From assembly GCA_030295235.1 (NCBI GenBank), contig AP026144.1:496001-560000 (forward strand): a stretch of 64,000 nucleotides of DNA, written 5' to 3'. The stretch comes from Fistulifera solaris (lineage: Eukaryota). Both the position numbers and the translations under genes were made by a program. The notes below the pieces were generated by a model. That model was given only the letters and a program-made list of their open reading frames with translations, had not been told where the DNA came from and made no database searches. Shown here piece after piece: positions 1 through 60,051 of the stretch (its first letter is position 1; each line of letters begins with the position of its first letter).

Positions 1-2094
1 CAAAATAATCAAGTTCAAAATCTTACCGTTGTGTCCAAGTAACGCAGTTATCTGTCCATTGTACATTGAAAGACTGAGACCATCCACGGCAATCTTATCA
101 CCAAAAACCTTTCGCAGCGATCGCACCTCAATAGACTTGCCTTCCTGAGCCTGCCTCTTGAGGGTGTCGCTTACGGGTTCCAGGGGTATTGAGCTGTTAT
201 CGCTGTCATCATCTCCTGGATCCGTTACGGACGAAGTGGAGGGAGTGGTGCGATTTGGAAACCAATATGATAAAGTCATTGGAAACCAGAGCGGCAAAGC
301 CTGACCATAATCGGGCTCGATGGTGCGATTCAAATACCAAGTCATTACACCCCAGAATATCGAATCGAAAATCAAATATCCAAGTGCATCATTAAACGTA
401 AACCCAGACTGGTTGTCACTTTGGGCCATAGAATTACTATTGAGACCAAGTCCTCTATCTTCCAATCGACCTATTTCCTGTAGTCCATAAGAGAATGCCG
501 CCACAGGATGTAAGCTAATCAGCCCGACCCATGTGCCATCATCTCTCGTGTAGTCAATGGGCACTGAGATTGTCAGAAACACGCCAATGAAGAAAGCAAG
601 TAACCCAAAAAGGACAGCACGCGCTGACTTGGATGAGAAACTAGATATCATCATGGAAAACACAGTCACGGCCAAGAAAGTAAAAGCCCAAAACTGAAAA
701 AGATAGCGAAACTCTGACGCTTCGTAAAGAACACTCGACATGACTGTCGTGAAGAAGGCAGAAATCATATTCCACAGAATGAAGGTCATGAACCAAGCCC
801 ATCCAATGTCAGATTCCGAGACACTCATCATTTTCATCAATTCCTTTTGACGCAACTCCTTTTCTCGCACAATGTACCCAATCATGGCGGCAACAGGATA
901 AAGCATTCCCAAGGTGACTAAAAGCGGGCCCGTTTCTGGGGGTTAATTGTTTAGACGATGATTTTATGCGAAGAAGGATGATTCTGAGTAGTGTTCCAAC
1001 GTGGAATGAGTACTTACCTGCAATCGAAGAGTAGAAACCGGAATCTTCGTATTCTTTGATCGGAAACTGCACGAATCGAACTCCTGCTTCCGCCACTTTG
1101 TATCCTGCATCAGCGGCCCCCGTCTGATTTAAGATAAAATCTCCAACGAGTCTCTGAAATGTCAAAACACCGTTGTAGACATATTGACCCGTACAAGAAA
1201 CTTCCAGCGGACCTTGTCTCGGTGTATTTTCGTCGGGCGTGCAAACACTAAAATCATTGCGAGCGTAATGTCGGAAAAGTCGACTCGTATCCGGTGTCGT
1301 GGAGGTTGCAGGTCGCGCCGCCGCCTCGGGAGCATTGAAATTCGTCGAATTCTGGCGAAGAGCATAATAGTACTTCATTGGGTCATCACCCTCCCAGACG
1401 ATCCCCATGGCTATTTTTGGCGTATCGAAGCCTTCATAATCGACCGCTGTAACATAGGCGTCCATCGCCTCGGGGCTGTCAAAGTGTTGCACCACATCGA
1501 ATGGAAGCAAACCAACTAATTCGGGGTATTTGGAATAAAGCCACGATTCAAAGTCCAGAGCACGACGCTTGCCGCCTTCATCATCCAAACGACTTGGTGC
1601 CAAGGCGATTGTTCCGTACTCACAGAACTGGGACGCATCCTGTCCTTCTCTTTCACACAGAGTCGAATCGCATTTCACCAAAGGTACTTGCCAATTGTAT
1701 CCGTTTCGTTCAATTCCCGAAATGATAAACTCCAAATCTCCTTCTTTCCCTTTGATGCACGTACGCTGGGCTTGCATAAAAGTAAAGTAATCACGGGCGG
1801 TCAAGGGCGTCAACGCGAACGGATCCGGAGGGAAAAACGCCGGGATCGTGCCCGAAAACAGTCCCTCCGAATCATCAACCGCCGATTTGATGCCCACCAA
1901 AACCCCAACAAATCCCATGGGGAGTAATATTTCCAACAGCTGTGTTGTTTTGATGATAACAATGAATGAGTGAGAGCTGAAAGCACAAAGTATGAACGAA
2001 GCATCCTTCTAATACTTACACTCCCCAGCCAATTGCGACGACGGAATATCCAGTTCCGTCGCATCAACGCCAACCATGCGCGTGAAAAGATCAT
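1..2094 (-). CDS. ABC transporter, subfamily A (N-terminal part; runs off the window start)
   Basis: Exon 2094-2020 (MIFSRAWLALMRRNWIFRRRNWLGS), GT-AG intron 2019-1940, exon 1939-1018 (LLEILLP, extracellular domain), intron 1017-936, then ETGPLLVTLGMLYPVAAMIGYIVREKELRQKELMKMM, the typical ABCA 'EKE..LKE.M' motif, followed by TM helices. Another donor lies near position 27. Confidence 0.9.
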
Positions 2095-2603
2095 TGTGTG
2101 AGCGGAATGCGCGTGTGAGACAATTTCGTCGCACTACAAGTACGAGGTCTCCCCACCAATGCGTTCGGACGACGACGACTAACTTTCCAGGTCACAAGAA
2201 TGCTTCAATCCGTCAACTGCTGTTTCCAGTAAGCTGTTTCCCTCTCTCTTTCACACAGACTACTCGAAATGAGAAAAGAAACAACAAAACTCTTGTTGTA
2301 TGGTTCCAATGTTGAGACTAAAAGGTAGAAGAGACAAACGCAAGAGAGTGATGGACCAAAGACATTTTGAACAATGCACATGAATAACGCGACACGTGCA
2401 GGGACTGGCGAAAGGAGGTAAGAATTCGCTGGAACATGGGTGTACTCTGACTCGCACACAAAATGGTTACCGATACGACAAAAACATGAAGGACGACTCA
2501 ATCACGAGGTCTCTCTCAGAAGTACAGTACCGGGTGGTTGTACACTACAAAACATCTTCCGTGTTATTGCGTCTTTTGCACGGTACCCTCAAATAAATAA
2601 TGA

Positions 2604-2837
2604 CGACCCTCCTCAATTGGCAACAGCAACAACAGTACACAGGTTCAAGAGCTTCGAGGAGATGTTTCGGCCTATGGCTTTTGGAATGAGAGACGAACGA
2701 CCATTTTCGATGTCCGAGTTACTGATACCGACGCACCGTCATACAGAAACCGTGACCCGATTAAGGTTCTGGCTTCTCAAGAGCGTGAAAAGCGTAGCAT
2801 GTACGGACCCCCTTGCCACGAGCGAGACTTCACTCCT
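2604..2837 (+). mobile_element. CRE-like non-LTR retrotransposon remnant, 5' half of the restriction-like endonuclease (RLE) domain
   Basis: A frame absent from the ORF track translates as ...QELRGDVSAYGFWNERRTTIFDVRVTDTDAPSYRNRDPIKVLASQEREKRSMYGPPCHERDFTP. This matches the RGD..GFW..FDVRVTDTDA.SY..KVL..EREK..Y..C..FTP pattern of CRE-clade RLEs. 5'-truncated; no RT domain upstream. Confidence 0.8.
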
Positions 2838-2908
2838 AGTCTTTAACATTTAACATGTAATTTTAGATTTCACGTCCTATAATTACATGTTAAATGTTAA
2901 AGACTAGG
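2835..2908. repeat. Perfect 28-bp inverted repeat (hairpin) with 18-nt loop
   Basis: Arm CCTAGTCTTTAACATTTAACATGTAATT (2835-2862) is the exact reverse complement of AATTACATGTTAAATGTTAAAGACTAGG (2881-2908). Loop is TTAGATTTCACGTCCTAT. Confidence 0.97.
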
Positions 2909-2910
2909 GA

Positions 2911-5900
2911 ACGCTTCGCTTTTGGAAACTTACGCTTTTGCAAACTTACGCATTTGCACACTTACGCTTTTGAAAACTTACGCTTTTGCACACTTACGCT
3001 TTAGAAAACTTACGCTTTTTGAAAACTTACGCTTTTGCACACTTACGCTTTTGGAAACTTACGCTTTTGCACACTTACGCTTTTTGCAAACTTACGCTTT
3101 TGCACACTAACGCTTTTGCACACTAACGCTTTTGGACACTTACGCTTTTGCACACTTACGCTTTTGCACACTTACGCTTTTGGACACTTACGCTTTTGCA
3201 CACTTACGCTTTTGCACACTTATGCTTTTGAAAACTTACGCTTTTTGAAAACTTACGCTTTTGCACACTTACGCTTTTGCACACTTATGCTTTTGAAAAC
3301 TGACGCTTTTAGACACTGACGCTTTTGCATACTTACACTTTTGGAAACTTATGCTTTTGAAAACTTACGCTTTTGGAAACTTACGCTTTTGCACACTTAC
3401 GCTTTTGAAAACTTACGCTTTTGGACACTTACGCTTTTGCAAACTTACGCTTTTGCACACTTACGCTTTTTGGACACTTACGCTTTTGCACACTTACGCT
3501 TTTGGAAACTTACGCTTTTGGACACTTACGCTTTTGGAAACTTACGCTTTTGGAAACTTACGCTTTTGAAAACTTACGCTTTTGGACACTTACGCTTTTG
3601 CAAACTTACGCTTTTGCACACTTACGGCCGGCTTTTTGGACACTTACGCTTTTGGAAACTTACGCTTTTGCAAACTTACGCATTTGCACACTTACGCTTT
3701 TTGAAAACTTACGCTTTTGCACACTTACGCTTTAGAAAACTTACGCTTTTGCAAACTTACGCTTTTGCACACTTACGCTTTTGGACACTTACGCTTTTGC
3801 AAACTTACGCATTTGCACTTACGCTTTTGAAAACTTACGCTTTTGCACACTTACGCTTTAGAAAACTTACGCTTTTGCAAACTTACGCTTTTGCACACTT
3901 ACGCTTTTGGACACTTACGCTTTTGGAAACTTACGCTTTTGGACACTTGGCGCTTTTGAAAACTTACGCTTTTGGAAACTTACGCTTTTGCACACTTACG
4001 CTTTTGCAAACTTACGCATTTGCACACTTATGCTTTTGCAAACTTACGCTTTTGAAAACTTACACTTTTGAAAACTTACGCTTTTGCACGCTTACACTTT
4101 AGAAAACTTACGCTTTTGGAAACTTACGCTTTTGCAAACTTATGCTTTTGCACACTTTCGCTTTTGGACACTTACGCTTTTGGAAACTTACGCTTTTGGA
4201 AACTTACGCTTTTGAAAACTTACGCTTTTGCAAACTTACGCTTTTGCACACTTACGCTTCGCTTTTGGACACTTACGCTTTTGGAAACTTACGCTTTTGC
4301 AAACTTACGCATTTGCACACTTACGCTTTTGAAAACTTACGCTTTTGCACACTTACGCTTTAGAAAACTTACGCTTTTGCAAACTCACGCTTTTGCAAAC
4401 TTACACTTTTGGACACTTACGCTTTTGGAAACTTACGCTTTTGCACACTTACGCTTTTGGAAACTTACGCTTTTGGAAACTTATGCTTTTGAAAACTTAC
4501 GCTTTTGAAACTTACGCTTTTGCACACTTACGCTTTTGCAAACTTACGCTTTTGGAAACTTACGCTTTTGGAAACTTGCGCTTTTTGAAAACTTACGCTT
4601 TTGGACACTTACGCTTTTGCAAACTTACGCTTTTGCACACTTACGCTTATGGAAACTTACGCTATTGCACACTTACGCTTTTGGACACTTACGCTTTTGC
4701 ACACTTACGCTTTTGCACACTTATGCTTTTGAAAACTTACGCTTTTAGACACTGACGCTTTTGCATACTTACGCTTTTGCAAACTTACGCTTTTGCACAC
4801 TTACGCTTTTGCACACTTACGCTGTTGGACACTTACGCTTTTGCACACTTACGCTTCGCTTTTGGACACTTACGCTTTTGAAAACTTACGCTTTTAGACA
4901 CTTACGCTTTTGCACACTTACGCTTTTGCACAGTTACGCTTTTGAAAACTTACGCTTTAGACACTTACGCTTTTGCAAACTTACGCTTTTGGACACTTAC
5001 GCTTTTGGAAACTTACGCTTTTGCACACTTAAGCTTTTTGCACACCGCGCTTTTGGACACTTACGCTTTTGCACACTTACACTTTTGCACACTTACGCTT
5101 TTGGACACTTACGCTTTTGCACACTTACGCTTTTGCACACTTATGCTTTTGAAAACTGACGCTTTTAGACACTGACGCTTTTGCATACTTACGCATTTGC
5201 ACACTTATGCTTTTGAAAACTTATGCTTTTGGAAACTTACGCTTTTGCACACTACCGCTTTTGAAAACTTAAGCTTTTGGACACTTACGCTTTTGCACAC
5301 TTAAGCTTTTGCACACTTATGCTTTTGAAAACTTACGCTTTTGGACACTTACGCTTTTGAAAACTTACGCTTTTGGAAACTTACGCTTCGCTTTTGGACA
5401 CTTACGCTTTTGAAAACTTACGCTTTTAGACACTTACGCTTTTGCACTTACTCTTTTGGAAACTTACTCTTCCACACTTACGCTTTTGCAAACTTACGCT
5501 TTTGCACACTTACGCTTTTGGAAACTTACGCTTTTGCACACTTACGCTTTTGGAAACTTACGCTTTTGAAAACTTACGCTTTTGCAAACTTACGCTTTTG
5601 GACACTTACGCTTTTGGAAACTTATGCTTTTGGACACTTACGCTTTTGCACACTTACGCTTTTGCACACTTAAGCTTTTGCAAACTTACGCTTTTGCACA
5701 CTTACGCTTCGCTTTTGGACACTTACGCTTTTGGAAACTTATGCTTTTGCAAACTTCACGATTTGCACACTTACGCTTTTGAAACTTACGCTTTTGCACT
5801 TACGCTTTGAAACTTCACGCTTTTGCACACTTCACGCTTTTGCACACTTTACGCTTTTGGACACTTCACGCTTTTGGAAACTTACGCTTTTGGACACTTA

Positions 5901-6620
5901 CGCTTTTGGAAACTTACGCTTTTGGACACTTACGCTTTTGGAAACTTACGCTTTTGGAAACTTACGCTTTTGAAAACTTACGCTTTTGGACACTTACGCT
6001 TTTGGAAACTTACGCTTTTGCACACTTACGCTTTTGAAAAGTTACGCTTTTGGACACTTACGCTTTTGCACACTTACGCTTTTGCAAACTCACGCTTTTG
6101 CACACTTACGCTTTTGGACACTTACACTTTTGGATACTTACGCTTTTGCACACTTACGCCGGCTTTTGCACACTTACGCTTTTGCAAACTTACGCTTTTG
6201 CACACTTACGCTTTTGAAAACTTACGCTTTTAGACACTTACGCTTTTGAAAACTTATGCTTTTGAAAACTTACGCTTTTGCACACTTATGCTTTTGCACA
6301 CTTAAGCTTTTGGATACTTACGCTTTTGCACGCCGGCTTATGGACACTTACGCTTTTGGAAACTTACGCTTTTGCAAACTTATGCATTTGCACACTTACG
6401 CTTTTGAAAACTTACGCTTTTGCACACTTACGCTTTTGCAAACTTACGCTTTTGCACACTTACGCTTTTGGACACTTACGCTTTTGCACACTTACGCTTT
6501 TGGAAACTTACGCATTTGCACACTTATGCTTTTGAAAACTTACGCTTTTGCACACTTACGCTTTAGAAAACTTACGCTTTTGCACACTTACGCTTTTGGA
6601 AACTTACGCTTTTGCACACT
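2911..6620 (+). repeat. ~3.7 kb tandem array of a 16-nt unit CTTACGCTTTTG[C/G/A]A[C/A]A, about 230 copies
   Basis: Directly visible. Constant core CTTACGCTTTT with 5-nt endings GCACA, GGAAA, GCAAA, GAAAA and GGACA, plus rare variants. Copy number estimated as length/16. Confidence 0.98.
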
Positions 6621-6850
6621 CCATTGACGGAATGATGGGACAACAGGCTATTTCAGCATCGAGACAGCTTGCAAGAAAACTTCAGCGGAAGTGGAACAAG
6701 CCATACTCCGAGATCTGTGGCTTCATCCGGGCGCGCATGAGTCTTTCCCTGGTCAGGTCAGTTAGTATGCTTCTGCGAAATCCAAGAGAAGGAATGCCAA
6801 AACGGAATCCCCCTCATTGGGAAACGGGCTCGGGACTGGCCCTCTACTAG
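6620..6850 (+). mobile_element. CRE-like non-LTR retrotransposon remnant, 3' half of the RLE domain and ORF C-terminus
   Basis: SIDGMMGQQAISASRQLARKLQRKWNKPYSEICGFIRARMSLSLVRSVSMLLRNPR...PHWETGSGLALY* matches the S.DG..G..A...LA..L..KW..PYS..CG..R.R.S..L.R C-terminus of CRE-clade elements. It continues the motif broken at 2837. A 3' UTR may extend to ~6970. Confidence 0.8.
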
Positions 6851-7067
6851 CGCACTAAGGCTAGGGAGTTAGAACCAAAGCTTACTCATTGAAGTGTCAG
6901 ACTGAAATATATGTGAATGAAAAGTGGAAAATTCAGTCGAATGTCAAGATTAGATTCTGACGATTAAAAAATTAGGAATTTTTCACTGCCGAAACGCTGG
7001 CTAATTTAAGAACAATGACTAGTTGAACAGCAAACATTAGGAGAATTAAACATAACATGAGCCACCA

Positions 7068-8197
7068 TTATCTATACCTCGGGCTCTCCGAAATGAATAC
7101 TTCCATGGAATCTGGATGGCTCTGGTCATCGATAATTAAGTTATGCTTCACTGTTCCTTGTTTTCCGGAAGCATCTCGCTTCCTATGAAAGGACCTGAAA
7201 CGCGAAAACCGTGATTGATCGTCTCCTGAATGACTCGAAGCGATTGAGCTGGAATCCATAGACACCGAATTGGGTATCGTCGCCTGTAGCTCTCTCCTTC
7301 TCCTTCTTCCACTCTCGTCATCATCATCATCATCGTTACTTCCAACAGACTCCACTGAATATCCATTTCTCGTTTCCAGTGTATTGGACAGCCAGGACTT
7401 TTTCTGGCGAGTTGTTTGCGGCTCTAACTCGGCTGCAATTTTGGCCTTTTCCGATCGGGACAAGGGAGAACTTGATGCTTCGCTGGGACGCAAGAATGCG
7501 GCTGAAAGAACCATCGTAGCAAACCACAGTAATGACCCCGCCACCATGACCAATCCTCCTTCATCTACTTCACATTTATTCTCGAGGAAAACCGAATTGC
7601 AGATTGCGGATTTCATCACCATGAACGTCATGCCACAACACAATGTTCCCATCATCGCAATGAAACAGAATATAGTAATTTGTAATCGATTAAATTCGAC
7701 GAAGATCATGAGCAGTTCCCATATCAACAATAAAAAAGACAAAACAATGGCAATCACGGCAAAAAATCGCGCCGTTTCAAACGGTGTATCGGACATTTCT
7801 TGCAGCATCGTTTCTTGATATCCCGCACAGGAACCATCCGACCAATGACTGTCTTGACGAAAGGGGCGCAGAAATTGGAAAAGACCGATCCCTACTTTGT
7901 GCGTCGCGGTCGGGCGTCCTGCGGCGGCTTCTTGAATGTTGGTAAAGAACGTTTCGAAATTTCCCGTTTCCGAGACAAAAGTGACCACCAGGAATCGACA
8001 AGACGCAGCCGCATAGAGAGTCGTGGTCATGGCGGCTGCTCCCGAGAGTAGTAAACCAAGCACGGTGTAACCGCCATGTGGGTACGAGCTGAAGGGAAGA
8101 TACGATGAGAGATGTAAGAACAGGATTAAAATTTTGTGTACCCATCCTGTTACGCCCGTGCGTCCACAGCAACTTACCACAGTCCTGTAAATTTCAT
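7068..8197 (-). CDS. Claudin-like four-TM membrane protein with low-complexity C-terminal tail
   Basis: Short exon 8197-8178 (MKFTGL..), GTAAGT intron to CAG at 8089, then YPHGG. TM1 plus SCRF, GIGLFQF..C..Y extracellular loop, three more hydrophobic helices and a C..C loop. Confidence 0.65.
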
Positions 8198-9217
8198 GGA
8201 TCGATGCTAACTATTTTCTTGATTTTTCAAATAACGTGAAATCGTTCGTTTCAAACCGCGACGATGGCAAAAGATGCTCACCATTTTCTGCGGCAAAAAT
8301 AAGTGTCCCCCCCCGCGCACCGCAAACGAGGTTCATGACTGAAACACAGTCGTGATTACTTCCGTCTACACTTCGGGTTTGAAAAAAAAACAGTAGATCC
8401 GAAATCAATGATCCATACGGCTTTTCGACGCAAACAATCGTGGCATGCATCAAGTTTACAGCTGAAAGATATTACAATGACATCATAGAGAAAAGAAAAG
8501 CTCAACAAAGTTGCAGAATCAACATAGTTTGGGTAACATCAGACTCAGCTATTCATTCATGACTGAAATGCAGTCTTGAAAAACACTTTGAGTCTATAGT
8601 GAACTATGTAGAAAATTGCACCAAGGATTTTTCATTGCTAAGAATCGTTGCGTGCATTGAGAATGCATCCGAACGTTATTGCATTGTAATAAACGCAACG
8701 TTAGCACAACAAGCTTGCAGAATGAAAGAAGAGTTGTAGCAGCTTTAGTTCCGGAGAATGCTAATTCGTGACTACATTCAGTCATGAGGATATAAGCACG
8801 CTAAACTCTCAATTTTTATTTTATTTTATTTACATTCAGTCATGAAGAATGGTCCCCTTGACTTTGGGTGTAAACCCCTGAAAATTCGAACTTTACTCTA
8901 GAGATTGATAAATTACGAGAGGAAGTGGACGACAAGAGGCTAAAAATAGAGTAGTCCGCAAATAGGATTTTAGGACAAAATAAAGCCGAGACGAGAAAAA
9001 CGTGCATACTTTGACGCTCTTATAAATTTTTTTTAGGGGAAGAGTTTTGACACGGAAGCGAGAAGTACATCGCAAATAAAAGAATTTATAAGCAATCCTA
9101 TTTATCTTATATTGTAACCCAAATAAGTGCGAGTCAAAAATTGAGCATAGACAAATTATTTCTTTTCCATGAATACAGCCGCTCTGTGGTCGAAAGCTAT
9201 TGCTAGCTGACTAACTC

Positions 9218-57726: not shown

Positions 57727-58683
57727 GCTGCTTGCCTTCTGTTATTTATAAGAAAGGTTGATTATTGTGTTACGTCGTCGTTTATTATATTTCGGAATAC
57801 TATCATGTGCCAATTCCGCTTTTTCTTAGGCTGTGGTGGAAAGAGGAAAACAAACAATCGTTGGAGATGATGGCGATGCGACTGTTCATTGTATAATGTT
57901 TGAAAGTAAAAATTTGAGTCGGGTTCGCATTTTTTCTTTTATAAGGAGTACCAGGTACCGTACCGGTACCGGTACTTGTACCTACCTGGTACCTGGTACT
58001 AGAGGTATTGCGTTCTTCGACTTCGGATGGTGAATGGTGAATCATAATCGCGAACAATCATCGTTCGTTCAAAATGCGGTGACAAAGATCCCCAAGATTT
58101 TTCAACATCTCGACTTGATGCGTGAATTACGCTTGCTGGTGACGTTATTAAAAGTGGGTTTTAAAAGCAACAGGAATCCAGCTAAGGGCTACGATAACAA
58201 GCAAGGATCTTTACCTGATAGAAGTCTTACTCGCAGGAAATATTCATGACTGAAATACAGTCGTGGCTATCTTTCCGTACGTACGGAAGGCAATTATGCT
58301 GTATCCTATTATAAAACGCCTTTCGATATCACGCCGCGATGCGTACACTGGCTTTTACGAAGCTAGACGAACGGACAGAAGTTATTAAGGCTGCCGTCTA
58401 GCTTTACGGATAAGGCAACGCGATGCTTTTTTCTCAAACAGCCCTCTTTTTCGATTGAAGGACCAACGTTCGATCAGAGAGATCTTAAACTATTCGCAGA
58501 AGTTTGAAAGAGCTACATGTTGATAAAACAAGTCGATTCGCGTGCATACTGTTACTGTAGCCCCAGGTGATAACGTGACGGAGCATCTTGTAAATCCATA
58601 TTCTTAAATACATTAACTCACTCACTTGACACATTCGAACACCTTGATCCCGCCTTCGCACACTTTCGCTTTTGCAATTTTTC

Positions 58684-60051
58684 TTATTTCTTGTTCATAT
58701 TGATCACGGGCGTTACCATAGAGCAATCGTTGAAAAAGTCGACCATGACAATGTTTTGCGTTTTCCCGTCCCACTCATCTTCGACCCAGTTGGACACTTT
58801 TGGAGTCGCACGTTTGGCAATGTTTCGAATCGACAAGTCTCCTCGGCCTTCGAAGATTTCTTCCTTGATCAGGTCCGTATCCGGCGTCAAAATACCTTGC
58901 AAGACAAAGAACTTGTTCTTGGGTCGCGCTTCGACCGTATTCTCGAGCTTGGAACGGAGCGTTTCCGTGTCATTGGCTTCGGGCCATTTCGAGTCGATGC
59001 AATTCTTGAACCAGAGCTTGCCGTTGGAGGCCTTGTGCGTGGCTTCGTCGTGGTAAATGACGACCGCCTGAGCGCCTTTCTCCCAGTACTCACGGACCGG
59101 GCTGTCGGGACTCAATCCCTCTTTTGATTGGCCATTTTGGGACCGAGTTTCTGCGTGATACGTGCCGCCAGCAGTTTATGATGTTCTGGAGTCATATCAT
59201 ACAAGTGATTGAAATCCAAAAGAACAATCTCTTTCGGATGATTGCTGAGGAACCGGGAGACTTCATCGAGTACCGTGTCAATGTTGACACAGTACACTCC
59301 GTGACACGTATAGAACTGATCTTCACCGTGACTTGCCACACGCAAATCAAGGTAGCGAATGCCTTCATTCAACTGCTGCGAAATAGTCAATTCTTGGCAT
59401 TTGCACAAGCGTTCAAATACCACGCCCAGAACAGCATCATTGATCTTTTCCGTCAATTTGCGGAATAAGCCGCGGCCCACTTCCAGTTTATCCTGAATTC
59501 CGGAGGTCAAATCCGAATCCGGCGAAGCCCCCAGCTCTTCATGGAACTGGTAAGTCCCACTGTCGTGAGTTCCGGGCAACGCCACTTGACAAAGCGGTTT
59601 GTCGGCAATCACCTTGCCCAAGACTTTCATCCAGTCTTGCGGGGGGAATGTAATCGTGGATTTTGATATCAATCCGATAATTCCCATCGTCTTCGACACC
59701 CACATCGGCACTGATGGCGAGAACGGGCTTGGCCTCGTCTTCGGCAACACTGCGGGCCCACCACTTTTCGGCGTCGCACAAGAGTTGCATCTTGTCGTCG
59801 CCTTGTTCGTGTTGCGCCACGAGCGTCAACTGACCATCTTTCTGAATGCGCTTCTCGGCTTCACCTTCGATGTAAGTATAGTTTCCGCCGTACACTTTGT
59901 GGGCCGGTTCGGCAGGCAACTGCTTTCCGGTGGCGAGTGTGCCTTGCAATTGGGGCATGCCCTGATCTTCAATGCGGGCCTTTCCTTCGATGACTATGGT
60001 GACGGAACGCGTTGAGCGGTTTTGAATACGAACGTAAGCACCTTTTCCCAT
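58684..60051 (-). CDS. PI-PLC X-domain protein (PLCXD-like)
   Basis: LPGTHDSGTY, CQELTISQQLNEGIRYLDLRV, CHG, HPKEIVLLDFNH, FFVLQGILTP and NIVMVDF. Frameshifts at ~59643 and ~59122. Confidence 0.9.

Follow-up and report, generated by a model that had tools for sequence, protein, structure and literature searches.

A 16-bp satellite block with a palindromic junction inside a retrotransposon endonuclease domain of Fistulifera solaris, a possible case of satellite capture at a DNA break

The route by which satellite DNA gets from its home arrays into gene-rich DNA is still debated, with carriage by transposons, reinsertion of extrachromosomal circular DNA (eccDNA) and gene conversion under discussion, and to our knowledge satellites have hardly been described in diatoms. 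The Cast satellites of Tribolium form euchromatic arrays whose junctions lie in poly(T)/(A) tracts and show microhomology, and spread by eccDNA or transposons has been put forward for them (PMC11610590). At yeast breaks, according to Yu et al. 2024 (PMC11724301), fold-back synthesis leaves templated inverted duplications of ∼5–34 bp, the other end is closed by end joining, and distant DNA can be inserted. Cg_HINE of Crassostrea, as described (PMC7492417), combines an internal tandem array of fixed orientation with a palindrome near one end and inserts into TT or T-rich sequence without target duplication. Here we analyze 64,000 nucleotides of the diatom Fistulifera solaris (GCA_030295235.1, contig AP026144.1, forward-strand positions 496,001–560,000; this whole stretch is the window, numbered from its first letter), in which a 74-bp palindrome (2835–2908) and ∼230 one-directional 16-mers (2917–6620) interrupt the endonuclease domain of a non-LTR (LTR, long terminal repeat) retrotransposon copy. 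An earlier note on this DNA had placed a hairpin and a 16-mer array inside such a domain, and a palindrome search, Tandem Repeats Finder and tblastn confirm this. In the reading we favor, to which we give an even chance, a satellite fragment was captured at a break and left a fold-back scar on one side, that is, the insertion was made by repair rather than by a new mobile element.

Since the target belongs to a multi-copy family, the empty site can be given to the base. A contig of the same organism at depth 473 carries the uninterrupted sequence ...ACTCCCCTGGTCTTT|TCCATT..., in which ACTCC is followed, past position 2836, by CCTGGTCTTTT; intact copies read ACT CCC CTG GTC TTT T(CC) and encode TPLVFS like the homologues. 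In the window the left junction reads ACTCC--TAGTCTTT|AACATT, the left flank extending to 2844, and at the right junction the array ends in ...GCACAC and gives way to TCCATTGACGG (CACAC|TCCATT). The insertion lies at T|T inside CTTTTCC (...GTCTTT|TCCATT...), with target sequence neither lost nor duplicated and at no cost in codons. The inserted block is 2845–6619 (3775 bp). The earlier note had begun it at 2835 and so counted retrotransposon coding sequence (2835–2844) to the insert, and it had taken three residues between DFTP and SIDG (LVF) to be absent, which are encoded by CTA GTC TTT at 2836–2844 and are not lost. Its proposal that one block was inserted at a single point in an element already present is supported, the flanks being contiguous halves of one copy; both halves match one element family rather than two, and the comparison with intact copies that it had recommended yields the site given above.

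As the earlier note had stated, the block has no pair of terminal inverted repeats (TIRs), no poly(A) and no coding capacity, and we likewise find no target duplication. The longest k-mer common to the 20-nt flanks is 3, and alignment of the 80-nt head with the reverse complement of the last 150 nt scores 6 (shuffle mean 8.1; 291 of 300 shuffles score at least 6), so that the block lacks both marks of a TIR DNA transposon or miniature inverted-repeat transposable element (MITE), namely inverted repeats at the termini and duplication of the target site. The right junction is a plain join with an overlap of at most 1 nt (T) and lacks poly(A) or any other trace of a 3′ tail. At the left junction, LVF is out of frame only because the C-run is 2 nt short. 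We compared contigs of four same-organism runs over 2200–2990, and the sole differences in the unique part of this interval are an A-run (2273–2277) and a T-run (2573–2577), in each of which the window is one base short. Since both are homopolymer under-calls, the 2-nt shortfall in the C-run is probably an assembly under-call too. Mutations clustered near the junction, considered as a mark of error-prone repair, were dropped as a candidate because the shortfall lies in a C-run and homopolymers are under-called.

In tblastn, the left flank (2619/2649–2837) is matched by one half of each of six related proteins, and in five of the six the residues that follow align from 6611/6620 on. For P0005, residues 975–1049 correspond to 2622–2837 and residues 1053–1127 to 6620–6847; for P0003, the second alignment begins within the array, at 6452, and runs to 6754. 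The flank open reading frames (ORFs) have 55 relatives at E ≤ 0.001, several of them ORFs of 1076–1245 residues, and the nearest include the diatoms F. solaris and Fragilaria crotonensis. Pfam returned no match for the two flank ORFs and no family at E ≤ 0.01 for any of three proteins of the family; one relative, P0047, carries a precomputed PF00078. YADD and QGDPLS motifs can be read in the relatives, and a profile of their reverse transcriptase (RT) region (13 relatives) gave weak matches to an RNA-directed DNA polymerase (8c8j_A, E 0.0034), to LINE-1 ORF2p (0.0065–0.091) and to an R2 protein (0.4).

The C-terminal domain of P0001 was modeled with AlphaFold2 from 22 natural fragments (mean predicted local distance difference test score, pLDDT, 80.4). 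A Foldseek search of the PDB with this model returned R2 proteins at all of ranks 1–6 (probability 1.00, query TM-score 0.40–0.54), followed by other PD-(D/E)xK nucleases, and Cys-917, Cys-920, His-928, Cys-932, Asp-989, Asp-1005, Glu-1029 and Lys-1032 are invariant in 13 full-length relatives. The predicted fold supports the assignment of the interrupted domain to the R2-type restriction-like endonuclease (RLE) of a non-LTR retrotransposon, and the insertion point maps within a β-strand of the modeled nuclease fold (model residues 105–113). The host element resembles R2-type elements in the succession of a putative RT, a CCHC motif and a PD-(D/E)xK nuclease fold, and differs from the known ones in having no Pfam match at E ≤ 0.01 and only weak similarity in the RT.

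Summed contig depth reaches 400–1500 over the element part (2605–2847) compared with 13 in the unique flank, which makes the element family multi-copy. The unique contig stops 30 nt into the repeat, and other copies continue upstream of 2617/2618 with in-frame element sequence, so the window copy is 5′-truncated at 2617; another contig diverges upstream of 2741. Two high-depth contigs match 2617–2770 and 2752–2836 with no mismatch and one 6-nt in-frame gap, and this lack of mismatches indicates that the host copy is young. At the gap (2820–2823) the window copy is without 6 nt, two Arg codons of ...ERRRDFTP..., that the high-depth family contig has, and this is probably a real variant of the copy.

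The palindrome consists of two perfect 28-nt arms (2835–2862 and 2881–2908) with 18 nt between them. These are the sole two matches within the window (0 expected by chance), and the stem reaches 32 nt around a 10-nt loop if one mismatch is allowed. As single-stranded DNA the palindrome folds at −27.8 kcal/mol, compared with −4.8 ± 1.9 for shuffled sequences (z = −12.3; 0 of 200 shuffles as good). Its G+C content is 27% (array 39%, window 46%), it carries stops in all three + frames, and AATT and TAG/CTA sit at its fold. The right-arm end, AAAGACTAGGG, is the inverted complement of CCCTAGTCTTT, 10 of whose 11 positions agree with the family consensus CCCCTGGTCTTT; we estimate that an unrelated insert end would match the flank consensus so well, and in the right place, in less than 1 case in 1000. 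The GGG at 2907–2909 fits the C-run of the family better than does the window's own CC. For the 36-nt filler between flank and fold (2845–2880), we found no match reaching 8 nt in the neighborhood of either flank, and matches in the rest of the window do not exceed chance.

With 10–11 of the 28 bp of each arm being flank or inverted flank, the view of the earlier note that the block is a mobile unit with the hairpin as its fixed head is unsupported. We read the hairpin best as the left junction, a by-product of joining rather than a mobile head. That a striking "hairpin head" can arise in this way calls for caution in repeat annotation.

Tandem Repeats Finder places the array at 2917–6620, nine bases past the palindrome (period 16, 229.9 copies, 85% matches, consensus CGCTTTTGCACACTTA). 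Our own segmentation gives 230 units, 201 of them of 16 nt; five variants, which differ at positions 9 and 11, account for 139 units (45, 30, 25, 21 and 18 copies), and rarer ones occur besides. At ≤2 mismatches there are 182 unit matches in the 64 kb, all inside 2917–6622 (0.06 expected). All 182 are on the + strand, and inverted arrays in both arms, as in Drosophila-type foldback (FB) elements, are not found. The array contains no internal duplications of ≥150 bp at ≥93% identity and no strict higher-order repeat beyond short recurring unit strings. In contigs of one same-organism run the 16-mer units are abundant, with a summed depth of 450–7100 over 2902–2990.

The earlier note had left open whether the block arrived or grew at its site. 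Growth in place from a junction seed, by replication slippage or reiterated templated addition, might be suggested by a 10-mer of the unit (GCTTTTGGAA) that is present in the left flank at 2677–2686 and by an inverted 11-mer at 2788–2798. Such sharing is at chance level, however, as among 249 control chunks, each 228 nt long, 20% have a ≥10-mer in common with the array, and we rejected the derivation of the unit from the flank because the similarity is no better than chance. Together with this, the heterogeneity of the units, which comprise the same five variants as a second F. solaris locus next to an H-NOX sequence (see below), and the youth of the host copy disfavor growth on the spot, which we regard as the least probable account of the locus. 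Arrival is likelier, and the array most likely came as a pre-formed block; templated repeat addition, one of the candidates named in the earlier note, is disfavored by the same heterogeneity.

A solitary 20-mer at 58658–58677, on the same strand and 52 kb off, matches an array unit junction (GCACACTTtCGCTTTTGCAA) at 19 of 20 positions. No such match was found in 100 shuffles, and the chunk holding it is the sole one of 249 control chunks to share a 17-mer with the array. It falls just outside a minus-strand ORF (58684–59175) and may represent a relic or a seed, or be a rare coincidence.

When we compared the translated array ORF with protein collections, a single same-family match emerged among 1459 candidates, F. 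solaris GAX13835.1 (P0056, 103 aa). It is the only match at 85% identity in the best 150 of 167 at E ≤ 0.001, and the rest of these best 150 are other repeats with a 16-aa period (23–59% identity). Residues 63–103 of GAX13835.1 translate the same unit variants, with up to 88% identity to the window array, and residues 1–62 form an H-NOX N-terminus that the window does not encode. Here too the array cuts into coding sequence, at the end that bears the hairpin in the window. Because the hairpin has stops in all three + frames, it cannot lie in the translated stretch of GAX13835.1, and this leaves no room there for a fixed hairpin head adjoining the array. Judged from its translated units, the satellite family occupies at least one further locus, with an H-NOX fragment adjoining, as expected of a dispersed satellite, and this is the candidate of the earlier note that we favor.

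A 16-residue period, TQTLLHTDAFTHRRFY, recurs in P0057, P0060, P0062, P0070 and P0073 (ENA assemblies, contigs to 695 kb). These sequences look like the translation of another DNA repeat of 16-nt period, which has CGCTTTT.CACAC in common with the window unit, and such "proteins" are probably satellite arrays annotated as genes.

The locus shares with the Tribolium Cast satellites, as described in PMC11610590, separate loci in gene-rich DNA, a junction in a T-run, minimal microhomology and no need for regular ends. It differs in its much shorter unit of 16 bp, in that two loci are known, and in an empty site known to the base. Most likely it is an instance of the satellite dispersal that the same source proposes for beetles, here at base resolution in a diatom. 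The case is useful in that a young multi-copy target gives a base-exact empty site and both junctions can be read, one plain and one bearing a fold-back scar.

The two junctions suggest the following course of events. A 5′-truncated (dead-on-arrival) RLE copy would have integrated first, and a pre-formed, already heterogeneous 16-bp satellite block would have been inserted into it while the copy was still young. A break would have opened in the T-run, with the broken left end already bearing ∼36 extra nt. This end would have snapped back at a short stretch complementary to itself (AATT or TAG/CTA) and been extended by 28–29 nt, comprising 18 nt of filler and 10–11 nt of retrotransposon flank, now inverted. 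The extended end would then have been joined to a satellite fragment, and the right side joined plainly. The donor was probably satellite DNA of another array of the same family, either extrachromosomal or copied.

An inverted copy of break-adjacent sequence with microhomology at the fold, the signature of fold-back templated insertion, is present in the window (2881–2909, copied from 2835–2862). Measured against PMC11724301, the locus resembles the yeast insertions in this inverted duplication, which at 28–29 nt is within ∼5–34 bp, and in microhomology priming, an end-joined other side and insertable foreign DNA. Here, however, there are 36 extra nt for which no template was found and a 3.7-kb satellite block, and the event is a natural one in the germ line of a diatom, not an induced break. 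Several points weigh against fold-back capture. Thirty-six nucleotides without a template call for an unexplained first step, a capture of 3.7 kb far exceeds the insertions reported for yeast, and a T|T site without duplication is a Helentron outcome as well. The homopolymer errors make single-base details (CC versus CCCC, reading frames, 15-/17-nt units) unreliable. The second locus is a protein model in which an intron might hide a hairpin, and one such junction was examined.

A further point is that none of the contigs of the four same-organism runs covers 2848–2901 or bridges the element into the array, so that the palindrome is known from this assembly and has no independent contig support over that interval. 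This gap, like the homopolymer under-calls at both unique-part differences (2273 and 2573), would also fit an assembly artefact, in which long-read assembly of a repeat-rich place produced the palindrome, the junctions or the array length. We consider this very unlikely. Contigs drop rare paths, and missing cover proves nothing; the 16-mer units are abundant in contigs of one run, and the satellite family is found in an independent F. solaris gene model. Moreover, the element halves meet to the base, unlike in a chance mis-join, and the right arm keeps the C-run of the flank as GGG.

Helitrons and Helentrons end in 5′-TC and CTRR-3′ and have A|T (Helitrons) or T|T (Helentrons) neighbors. A non-autonomous, hairpin-ended mobile element with a satellite body would provide a different explanation for the block, either as a degenerate Helentron/HINE (with the hairpin as 3′ end and the element on the minus strand) or as a member of an undescribed class; the extension of the stem into the flank would then reflect pairing of a subterminal "guide" with the target. 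We regard it as unlikely. The T|T insertion without target duplication is as described for HINEs, although a single site is weak evidence, HINEs bear a palindrome in the 3′ module and a central tandem array, and the array family is found at ≥2 loci, each time interrupting a coding sequence. Going by PMC7492417, the likeness to Cg_HINE extends to the fixed array orientation, whereas subterminal inverted repeats, a left module and a microsatellite are all lacking here, the palindrome is partly target sequence, the array measures 3.7 kb and is short there, and for our block we know of no further copy that shares its ends.

Further evidence speaks against a mobile element. We found no subterminal inverted repeats between the ends, and the array runs right up to the right junction. 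The ends do not conform to 5′-TC/CTRR-3′ with A|T or T|T neighbors in either orientation, and 10–11 nt of each arm are target sequence. Coding sequence occupies the head side at the F. solaris H-NOX locus, which the hairpin with its stops in three + frames could not be, and the 64-kb window contains no Rep/helicase or transposase. The Helentron-like candidate of the earlier note agrees with the locus in the T|T site, in the missing duplication and, as far as an end palindrome made partly of target sequence can count, in the one palindrome, but in nothing else.

The hairpin was also not found in viral, metagenome or prokaryote collections, which do not contain this genome. The inner-arm 18-mer has one match in viral contigs, single-armed and by chance, and 62 loci in metagenome contigs, all of them single-armed, none extending beyond 22 nt and none with the 16-mer. 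Nine metagenome loci of one assembly have 21 nt in common, and we set them aside as chance since the shared stretch belongs there to an unrelated AT-rich repeat of >800 bp. Neither the gapped two-arm pattern nor the 16-mer dimer, exact or degenerate, gave a match in viral contigs or in prokaryote genome contigs. A comparison of the translated head ORF (2901–3110) with proteins yielded five candidates, none scoring. A CRESS-virus-type origin hairpin was rejected because the loop, inspected by eye only, is without the nonanucleotide of such origins.

Quite unlikely, too, is an undescribed self-priming mobile unit that would combine a conserved core (AACA...TGTAATT, loop, inverted core) with a satellite body and integrate into T-runs by snapping back on its target. 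In a variant of this reading, the target would be chosen through pairing of a 10–11-nt subterminal guide, comparable to IS200/IS605 with 4 nt. If such a unit existed, its copies would share a 54-bp core (2845–2898 in the window) and have outer stems that differ according to the flank, or would all lie at one retrotransposon site.

LINE and R2 reverse transcriptases jump between templates. The reverse transcriptase of this or another non-LTR element might have copied a satellite transcript by template jumping, with the palindrome arising by snap-back priming; this would have happened while the present copy was being retrotransposed or else at some later break. The array is oriented like the element, the copy around it cannot be told from the family consensus over 239 nt bar the 6-nt gap, the element halves are exactly contiguous, and the family is abundant (depth 400–1500 versus 13) and hence, on this sequence evidence, probably active. 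That the enzyme should leave the element RNA and resume at exactly the following nucleotide would be unexpected, however, unless the RNA was cut there, end-to-end jumps leave the inverted flank copy unexplained, and a poly(A) or other 3′ tail mark is missing from the right junction. We judge this RNA-mediated route quite improbable. The features of the retrotransposon copy and of the block are collected in the table.

Table. Features of the interrupted retrotransposon copy and of the inserted block (window coordinates)
Feature	Position	Strand	Remarks
Left half of a 5′-truncated copy of a multi-copy non-LTR retrotransposon (putative RT + RLE)	2617–2844	+	Ends ...DFTP(LVF); tblastn of six relatives
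Left palindrome arm, outer 10 nt, CCTAGTCTTT	2835–2844	+	Retrotransposon coding sequence (P-L-V-F), not inserted DNA; depth-473 contig, homologues read FTPLVFS
Perfect 7-nt tandem duplication, TTTAACA|TTTAACA	2842–2855	+	First copy spans the flank/insert boundary 2844|2845; read from the sequence
36-nt filler: inner 18 nt of left arm and 18-nt loop	2845–2880	+	No template found near the flanks or, above chance, in the window
Right palindrome arm, inverted copy of 2835–2862	2881–2909	+	Last 11 nt, AAAGACTAGGG, are inverted retrotransposon flank
Array of ∼230 16-nt units in a single orientation, 39% G+C	2910–6619	+	Five main variants, distinguished by unit positions 9 and 11
Right half of the interrupted RLE domain, SIDGMMG... 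to stop codon 6848–6850	6620–6850	+	tblastn
Presumed retrotransposon 3′ untranslated region (UTR), 3′ end undefined	6851–6990	+	Assignment inferred from position

The rest of the window is gene-dense host DNA that encodes an ABC transporter, a Myb protein, AICARFT/IMPCHase, a RING ligase and flavodoxins; the interrupted copy is situated between the ABC transporter gene (1–2008) and a gene at 7068–8210. It holds no other reverse transcriptase and no transposase, and Rfam identifies no family over its whole length. Upstream of the retrotransposon copy, at 2200–2325, contigs of three small same-organism runs (depth 65–89) end at 2277–2325, and those of the fourth run continue at depth 13. If the three small runs are RNA, 2277–2325 marks the transcript end of the ABC transporter gene, on the minus strand and ∼300 nt before the retrotransposon copy.

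A preprint on nanopore sequencing of F. solaris (10.1101/2021.11.10.468027) gives three "centromere/ARS" (autonomously replicating sequence) consensus motifs, located on 43 of 44 chromosomes. We find an exact match (24 of 24 positions) to part of the third of these motifs at 6926–6949 (context 6905–6990), 76 nt past the stop codon of the element. By eye, the first motif overlaps the match on the opposite strand. The published motifs may be the 3′ UTR or 3′ end of this multi-copy retrotransposon family, and if they do sit in a retrotransposon 3′ end, their reading as centromere or replication-origin motifs would change.

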